From a virus: 44,487 nt of DNA. Numbering within the stretch: the first letter of the stretch is position 1; each line of letters opens with the position of its first letter. This document shows positions 1,233-1,295 of the stretch, piece by piece. Under the pieces are notes generated by a model. That model saw nothing but the letters and a program-made list of their open reading frames with translations. It did no database searches and had not been told where the DNA came from. Position numbers and translations under genes: made by a program. The stretch lies in IMG/VR virus record IMGVR_UViG_3300029593_000013; one strand, written 5' to 3'.

Positions 1233-1295
1233 ATGTGGGTTATCTATGCACTGATATTCTTTGGGGCGATTTTCAAGGTTCTGTTGAAGAAGTAG
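1233..1295 (+). CDS. 20-aa hydrophobic micro-protein MWVIYALIFFGAIFKVLLKK
   Basis: ATG lies 3 nt after the upstream stop. A paralogous peptide (VLIVYVIIFFGAVLKALLK) is encoded at 43074-43133 on the other strand. Confidence 0.45.
   Translation: MWVIYALIFFGAIFKVLLKK

Follow-up and report, generated by a model that had tools for sequence, protein, structure and literature searches.

Paralogous 19–20-codon micro-ORFs with probable single-helix membrane products in a temperate gut phage

The virus record IMGVR_UViG_3300029593_000013 of IMG/VR is a stretch of DNA of 44,487 nucleotides (nt), hereafter the window, and it contains two very small open reading frames (ORFs), referred to here as micro-ORFs A and B. 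A first-pass annotation, made by a model from the letters alone, had picked them out as paralogous hydrophobic peptides on opposite strands. Micro-ORF A, with 20 codons, lies at 1233–1295 (+), encodes MWVIYALIFFGAIFKVLLKK and ends in TAG; micro-ORF B, with 19 codons, lies at 43074–43133 (−) and reads V(M)LIVYVIIFFGAVLKALLK from a GTG start. Both positions and translations are as the annotation gave them. Positions 1–99 recur exactly at 44389–44487, and with this direct repeat the window is to be read as a genome of 44,388 bp, circular or terminally redundant, in which features near the two ends are neighbours. An end overlap of 99 bp is typical of a circular contig from an assembler run at k=99. 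On the circle, A and B are ~2.5 kb apart and fall within one ~4.6-kb accessory region between the genes for the small and large terminase subunits (terS and terL), so the annotation's "independent copies" in "unrelated DNA contexts" cannot be upheld.

The geometry claimed for the two ORFs (a 3-nt offset for A, a 7-nt overlap for B, a GGAGGTG Shine–Dalgarno (SD) sequence and a terminator after B) proved correct throughout. Micro-ORF A starts 3 nt after the TGA (1228–1230) of an 87-residue gene (967–1230, +), and its SD region (1214–1225, +; AGAAAGAGGGTG), with a GAGGG core 9 nt before the ATG, is embedded in the final codons (QKEGV*) of that gene. At its other end (1293–1308, +), the stop codon of A runs into the SD of the next gene (TAGGAGG, 1293–1299), whose ATG is at 1306. 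No unusual mRNA structure was predicted around A (z=0.37).

Micro-ORF B overlaps its upstream gene, with its GTG (43133–43131) and the TGA (43129–43127) of a 75-residue gene (43127–43354, −) overlapping by 7 nt in the string GTGCTGA. Its SD and spacer (GGAGGTGATGCGCT; 43134–43147, −), with GGAGGTG at 43147–43141 and 7 nt before the GTG, double in the window as the CGGDALC tail of the upstream 75-residue protein. That protein has 53 homologous clusters, and the CGGDALC tail is found only in its 75- and 77-residue homologues; forms with other tails are 2–5 residues shorter, and B is absent from L005, the sole shorter-form locus checked. Just 6 nt beyond the stop of B begins the first of two tandem intrinsic terminators (43001–43067, −; z=−8.0), comprising hairpin 1 with its T-run at 43067–43033 and hairpin 2 at 43032–43001. 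Both are invariant or nearly so across all B loci. In one of these loci (L073, ~1440–1470) the loop of hairpin 1 is reverse-complemented relative to all the others, on the same stem.

The A and B peptides are identical at 11 of 19 residues (58%) and form the top-scoring pair among ~112,000 pairs drawn from the 475 small ORFs (15–45 residues) of the window. The margin over the runner-up is a single point (65 versus 64), and the similarity alone is therefore weak evidence. At the DNA level, 35 of 57 positions agree (61%), with 11, 16 and 8 matches out of 19 at the first, second and third codon positions, respectively, and no run of identity is longer than 6 nt. Because relatives conserve both ORFs, the likeness of the two predicted peptides can be taken to exceed chance.

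Those relatives were collected independently of the peptides. For A, homologues of the 87-residue gene led to assemblies L006–L016, in which the slot after the gene was read; L016 was uninformative, its contig being rearranged or chimeric after 421 nt of a 220-residue gene. For B, homologues of the 75-residue gene led to L017–L020, and further loci were then anchored on the terminator. Micro-ORF A is intact in all nine slot-anchored loci, where a minimum of 3, 1 and 11 changes fall at codon positions 1, 2 and 3 (p=0.004). The copy in L009 differs from that of the window by six changes, every one synonymous, and in L015 eleven codons differ, nine of them synonymously. Where the ORF is 90–97% identical in nucleotides, the peptide is 100% identical and the adjoining 87-residue protein 83% identical. 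Micro-ORF B is likewise intact in each of the 13 terminator-anchored loci, with 4, 4 and 19 changes at the three codon positions (p=2.4e-4); its start has switched from GTG to ATG in L014 and L024, and its stop from TAA to TGA in L014. The length stays at 19–20 codons across relatives, and the ratio of nonsynonymous to synonymous differences (pN/pS, Nei–Gojobori) is 0.11–0.28 within types and 0.22–0.34 between types, with synonymous sites saturated between paralogs.

A wider search with a degenerate DNA pattern, in representative genomes and metagenomes, brought the total of intact instances to 52; A was present in 21 contigs, B in 21 and a third type, C, in 9. Since this set is biased by the search pattern, it was used for contexts and for a frame control only. 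Synonymous and nonsynonymous changes number 42 and 19 in the proposed frame of this ascertainment-biased set, as against 17/45, 11/53, 14/47 and 11/51 in other frames and 32/32 in one reverse frame. Scans of IMG/VR with the peptide pattern gave a hit situated inside a long ORF, which was set aside as chance. Most other metagenome matches were T-rich chance matches, and a second apparent family in rumen contigs (IFYCFLFFHAMIPSFFK) was also discarded as chance, being the reverse complement of a gene start composed of an SD and an ATG.

Taken together, the intact frames in all peptide-independent relatives, the mostly synonymous change with its third-position bias and the turnover of start and stop codons with the frame kept bear out the annotation's view that the peptides are real, and neither of the two sets of anchored loci contained the frameshifts or premature stops that would speak against it. 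A and B are very probably translated and selected paralogous peptides, and the apparent unit of selection in these comparisons is shown to be the peptide, not the surrounding DNA.

The neighbourhoods in which the ORFs occur vary considerably. Micro-ORF A is found behind three upstream genes (the 87-residue gene, an 83-residue gene that matches a PHROG helix-turn-helix (HTH) DNA-binding family, and a 220-residue gene with an N-terminal transmembrane (TM) segment) and before two downstream genes (a 106-residue HTH gene or a resolvase-like gene). Its SD is kept behind both the 87-residue and the 83-residue HTH-like genes; behind the 220-residue gene it uses another SD, AAGAGG or AAGGGG, at 6 nt, and starts MVIIY. 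The overlap between its TAG and the next SD is preserved whichever of the two downstream genes follows. Micro-ORF B and its SD follow four unrelated upstream sequences, always with the same two terminators behind. Each ORF thus keeps an SD at working distance despite differing neighbours, and the comparison showed both to behave as separable modules. Of the contigs that cover both positions, at least 15 carry A together with B (or C).

In many relatives (L007, 3072–3772; L009–L011, L015, L032, L056 and L097), the gene after A encodes a 121-residue serine-recombinase catalytic domain and overlaps a 112-residue HTH gene by 4 nt in L007, L009 and L015, where the gene calls extend that far. The two look like a split resolvase or invertase, of which the window keeps the HTH part only. 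The slot of A can also hold other membrane-type proteins in relatives, either the 220-residue protein or a glycine-zipper-like protein. The latter was seen in L002 and L003 (~3600–3920), where the gene upstream of the 106-residue HTH gene has a glycine-zipper-like segment (GGAILGGAVAGDVGALIGASAG) at its end and A is absent.

The annotation also held that standard gene callers would not report such ORFs, and indeed no gene is called in the micro-ORF slot in any assembly examined; the exact A-type peptides, the only type looked up there, are absent from a collection of 15 billion proteins. Pfam holds no family match for a 20-residue or a 29-residue form, even at E<=10, and neither tblastn nor blastn against 50,697 GenBank phage records gave a match. 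The peptide strings were found in no searchable paper. As far as we can tell, the family is undescribed. Its kind is known, single-helix small membrane proteins and hydrophobic micro-proteins of phages and prophages having been documented well.

The family consensus is M-[WLV]-[IV]-[IVL]-Y-[AV]-[LIF]-I-F-[FC]-x-A-[IV]-[FL]-[KAS]-[AV]-L-L-K-(K). Residues 2–14 are all apolar or aromatic, with a grand average of hydropathy (GRAVY) of 2.3–2.95 for the first 14 residues and of 1.65–2.26 overall. Charge, of +1 to +3, is confined to the last five residues, in a tail of the form K/A/S-x-L-L-K(K) that carries K15, K19 and K20 in A and K15 and K19 in B; K19 is invariant and K15 can be replaced by A or S. 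Hydropathy and length fit one helix, 19–20 helical residues being about one bilayer thickness. The single hydrophobic helix with a basic C-terminus that the annotation had described therefore stands as a prediction, with ~14 apolar residues and all charge C-terminal. The positive-inside rule predicts that the N-terminus lies outside and the C-terminus inside. Given translation, the peptides are likely to be embedded in a membrane.

The accessory region around the micro-ORFs is organised as two divergent operons, with A in the rightward and B in the leftward one. The rightward operon has a σ70-like promoter at 908–936 (+; TTGACA-17-TATACT, TG-extended, 11 of 12 consensus matches), which is preceded by a bidirectional hairpin at 875–889. 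The operon then runs through the 87-residue gene, A as its second cistron, the 106-residue double-HTH gene (1306–1626, +; Pfam HTH_23, HTH_28 and HTH_7), a DUF4160 gene and a DUF2442 gene before terL is reached. The 87-residue product has no Pfam match and a weak match to phrog_38278, and this weak similarity hints that it may be HTH-like. The DUF4160 (1668–1922, +) and DUF2442 (1933–2178, +) pair adjoins the terminase region on its upstream side and is followed by a strong bidirectional hairpin at 2186–2248.

The leftward operon has two σ70-like promoters within 147–282 (−), one at 175→147 with 12 of 12 matches and one at 282→254 with 11 of 12. Its first gene, with an ATG at 116 (−) and an AAGGAGG SD, crosses the genome junction, and the five small genes of the operon, laid out across that junction, end with B and the two tandem hairpin terminators. 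This is a variable cargo operon. In relatives where it also ends with B, it includes an AcrIC5-like gene (PF22147, a precomputed Pfam match; L006 1620–2177, −, and L007–L011). The window itself lacks that gene, unlike L006–L011, whose host carries a type I-C system.

The phage is a tailed, temperate, Clostridiales-associated gut phage. Its large terminase (2685–4331, +; phrog_38, E=3e-63) is closest among GenBank phages to that of Clostridium phage Maintenon, at 45% identity, and megablast found no nucleotide match of the window to GenBank phages. A GP3_package-type small terminase is encoded at 41808–42467 (+), so that terS and terL are split by ~4.6 kb of accessory DNA that includes an oppositely transcribed operon, an unusual layout for a packaging module. 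Eight copies of AAAGTCG lie within ~130 bp (42475–42603, −) just downstream of the terS-like gene, and could be a pac site, a TerS-binding site or an iteron-like site; the surrounding DNA (~42470–43000) is GC-rich, and no credible gene was seen in it. The lysogeny and holin modules are located elsewhere: a large serine integrase at 24530–26203 (−), a CI-like repressor at 26187–26882 (−) and a 70-residue holin at 21746–21958 (phrog_881), which is ~20 kb from the micro-ORFs and leaves them outside the lysis cassette. Two tRNA genes, tRNA-Thr(TGT) at 6060–6135 (+) and tRNA-Asn(GTT) at 6218–6293 (+), separate the portal gene from the head genes, and the Rfam FuFi-1 RNA (RF02986) is matched over its full length at 28708–28914 (−), with 76.8 bits where the gathering score is 59.6.

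The third paralog, C (MWILYAIIFFGAVFAALLK), is confined to Clostridiales chromosomal contigs, such as a 135-kb UMGS670 contig. Its place is immediately behind the degenerate terminal repeat of a type I-C CRISPR array and upstream of cas4-cas1-cas2, with ~130 nt between C and cas4. In L021 (1806–2140), a decayed HTH remnant accompanies C between the terminal repeat and these genes. Four contigs carry an additional phage-derived fragment inside the array (L103 3288–4270; also L022, L029 and L089), flanked by repeat sequence on both sides like an oversized spacer, and this fragment comprises the 83-residue HTH gene and A, both intact, together with the 5′ end of the 106-residue HTH gene, which is truncated. 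Two spacers of L021 (UQVA01000003.1, Clostridiales UMGS670) match the window at 26426–26460 and 27562–27597 with one mismatch each, and further spacers in the same arrays match several related phage contigs. These matches identify the host lineage as Clostridiales, UMGS670-like.

It is conceivable that the HTH gene and the micropeptide form a mobile unit, a membrane-toxin or addiction-type module that moves between the phage lineage and the type I-C CRISPR locus of its host, an idea on which the copies of A inside arrays, the position of C beside cas4-cas1-cas2, the anti-phage spacers and the AcrIC5-like gene of relatives all bear, and one that we rate as improbable. If the peptides were active at the CRISPR locus, the adaptation operon could be stabilised or regulated by them, or the phage could use them as a means of anti-defence or of exclusion.

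The reading that we favour, with moderate confidence and on the strength of sequence comparison, is that A and B encode genuine single-helix membrane micro-proteins that act as membrane-active accessory factors; a specific membrane-perturbing role is a more tentative step, possible and short of probable. Each peptide would be inserted in the host cytoplasmic membrane, its N-terminus facing out and its lysine tail lying in the cytoplasm, and would be active there at low dose, whether singly or as an A/B pair. The likeliest role would be that of an accessory factor with, for example, a depolarising or toxin-like, exclusion or host-takeover activity. For most B variants, an mRNA hairpin that masks the SD might limit translation. 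Such a dose-limited factor is favoured because a bare TM helix with a lysine tail is the minimal architecture of a type I toxin such as IbsC, because relatives carry other membrane-type proteins in the slot of A, because the SD of B is predicted to be paired within an mRNA that is more stable than synonymous recodings in four of six haplotypes, and because the leftward operon is variable cargo that includes an AcrIC5-like gene in relatives. The predicted hairpin pairs that SD almost fully with Ile–Phe codons. For the window, the mRNA of B was computed at −30.8 kcal/mol against −17.3±3.4 kcal/mol for the recodings, none of 300 of which reached the native value.

Several observations weigh on the other side. 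The covariation check of the SD hairpin found no compensatory changes, solely G–C to G–U ones; the hairpin is not predicted for A or C, and it may have arisen as a side effect of pyrimidine-rich Ile/Phe codons lying opposite a purine-rich SD. Positions 11 (G/C/W/L/V/A) and 15 (K/A/S) are permissive, so a tight sequence-specific site there is disfavoured, and the helical stripe of conserved residues is not significant (p=0.32). The close relatives found by a neighbour-based search of IMG/VR (L002–L005), L002 and L003 among them, are without A, and L003 and L005 are without B as well; the peptides are therefore accessory and dispensable. All relatives come from a single phage lineage and its host, and a recent common ancestor is possible for several contigs, so the depth of conservation is modest. 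Finally, no homology to characterised proteins was found.

The chief alternative to a membrane-active factor, a minority possibility in our judgement, is that the helix binds and regulates or blocks one specific membrane protein of host or phage (for example a receptor or injection channel, a sensor kinase, a transporter, FtsH or the holin) and leaves the bilayer unperturbed. This is the mode of many characterised small membrane proteins (PMC12648545). Moreover, the invariant residues Y5, I8, F9, A12 and K19 fall within a 100-degree arc of the helical wheel, and the co-occurrence of A with B (or C) would fit a heteromer or two targets. The invariance of those positions was, however, partly imposed by the search pattern, the helical conservation moment falls short of significance (p=0.32, as above), and in the loci examined the presence of the micro-ORFs is not tracked by any candidate partner gene.

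A classical type I toxin–antitoxin (TA) system, in which an antisense-repressed toxin would stabilise the prophage and, for the host copies, the CRISPR locus, is an unlikely explanation. Toxins of this type are described (PMC5961336) as shorter than 60 residues, with a single potential TM helix and charge at the C-terminus, a description that the peptides fit; the SD of B is predicted to be sequestered, the phage is temperate, and the host copies lie beside CRISPR arrays as they do in Clostridioides difficile. Both ORFs are nevertheless operon-internal or terminal cistrons with coupled or ordinary SDs and no stand-alone promoters. A scan that is blind to weak or non-σ70 promoters and to trans-acting RNAs found no σ70-like promoter on the opposite strand near either ORF, there is no Rfam match at either of them, and the mRNA region of A, as noted above, is not unusually structured. 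With no stand-alone unit and no antisense promoter detected, classical TA function is unsupported. The annotation's comparison to type I toxins accordingly stands for the architecture of the peptide and does not extend to its genetic setting.

It is equally doubtful that the peptides are incidental to a regulatory device in which translation itself is what matters, with A delivering ribosomes to the next gene and B modulating termination or mRNA stability. The arrangement would be in keeping with it, as the stop of A overlaps the SD of a gene whose ATG is 10 nt downstream, in a junction kept with two different downstream genes, and the stop of B is 6 nt before a terminator hairpin. The peptide is nonetheless conserved in A, B and C despite their differing 3′ contexts (a coupled gene, terminators and cas4), and this makes a translation-only role unlikely; in addition, synonymous sites are free to vary, and there is no structure near A that would require ribosomal unwinding.

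That the ORFs are inverted-repeat recombination sites, remnants of a longer gene or mere coincidence is very improbable. In its favour, A and B are mutually inverted, several relatives have a resolvase-like gene next after A, and the similarity score of the pair is no outlier within the window. Against it, their DNA identity is 61% with no shared run beyond 6 nt, an invertible segment was rejected because the region is free of inverted repeats of at least 13 nt and no contig shows the inverted configuration, and the ORFs display three-base periodicity, exchange start or stop codons only for other start or stop codons and hold a fixed length of 19–20 codons.

A membrane-active accessory factor remains the preferred reading, and its nearest parallels are small membrane proteins of several kinds. 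Holins and antiholins are, like A and B, small phage membrane proteins with a charged C-terminal tail. They differ in that A and B are about one-third of the length of the 70-residue holin, which is encoded far off, and lie outside the lysis cassette. YohP (27 residues), KdpF, AcrZ and MgtR (PMC12648545, PMC7549839) share with A and B one TM helix, scant extramembrane sequence and a habit of being missed by annotation, and as with other small membrane proteins, insertion of A and B might plausibly proceed by signal recognition particle, YidC or Sec, or spontaneously. These proteins are chromosomal and have known partners, whereas A and B are phage accessory genes at the bottom of the size range.

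Closer in size are the very hydrophobic Ibs, ShoB and TisB proteins of Escherichia coli, which often occur in several paralogous copies. IbsC equals the micro-ORFs in length, and with 19 residues, nearly all of them in one TM helix, it is a functional membrane toxin (PMC12648545). The Ibs proteins show no sequence similarity to A or B, however, and they are made from stand-alone genes with a Sib antisense RNA, whereas A and B are operon cistrons with no antisense promoter detected. The Ibs group is also enterobacterial and chromosomal, and A and B are phage-borne in Clostridiales.

A similar setting is that of C. difficile, in which hydrophobic, lysine-tailed type I toxins lie beside CRISPR arrays and in prophages (PMC5961336). 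CD2517.1, CD2907.1 and their like, from array-adjacent loci and phiCD630 prophages (PMC5961336, PMC7699646), resemble A and B in having a hydrophobic N-terminal helix and a lysine-rich C-terminus, and they share with them clostridial hosts, a temperate phage or prophage setting and copies directly beside CRISPR arrays. No homology between the two groups was detected. The C. difficile toxins have 50–53 residues, and their antisense RNAs and toxicity have been shown experimentally; A and B have 19–20 residues, and no antitoxin RNA was detected for them. Moreover, the array-adjacent copies of the present family are part of a phage-derived fragment and not an autonomous TA unit as in C. difficile. 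Should the mobile-module idea raised above nonetheless hold, it would extend the theme of toxins next to CRISPR arrays to 19-residue peptides without an RNA antitoxin.

On a broader scale, A and B resemble, by description, the conserved gut phage and metagenome ORFs of fewer than 50 codons in the families of Sberro 2019, Fremin 2022 (via PMC11364881) and GMSC. For the human microbiome, 4,539 small-protein families are reported, 30% of them predicted to be transmembrane or secreted (PMC11364881), and small gene families predicted from microbiome and phage data already run into the thousands (PMC11364881 and its references). If A and B are merely minor accessory factors, they add one more small phage family to those thousands. 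They mark an annotation blind spot, being absent from assembly gene calls, from Pfam and, for the exact A-type peptides, from the 15-billion-protein collection. Their paired divergent layout and CRISPR-embedded copies suggest roles in depolarisation, exclusion, addiction or regulation of the adaptation operon. At 19–20 residues, they approach the smallest size at which a membrane protein can be functional and come with unusually clean comparative evidence for selection, and they therefore lend themselves well to testing what use a phage can make of a bare transmembrane helix.

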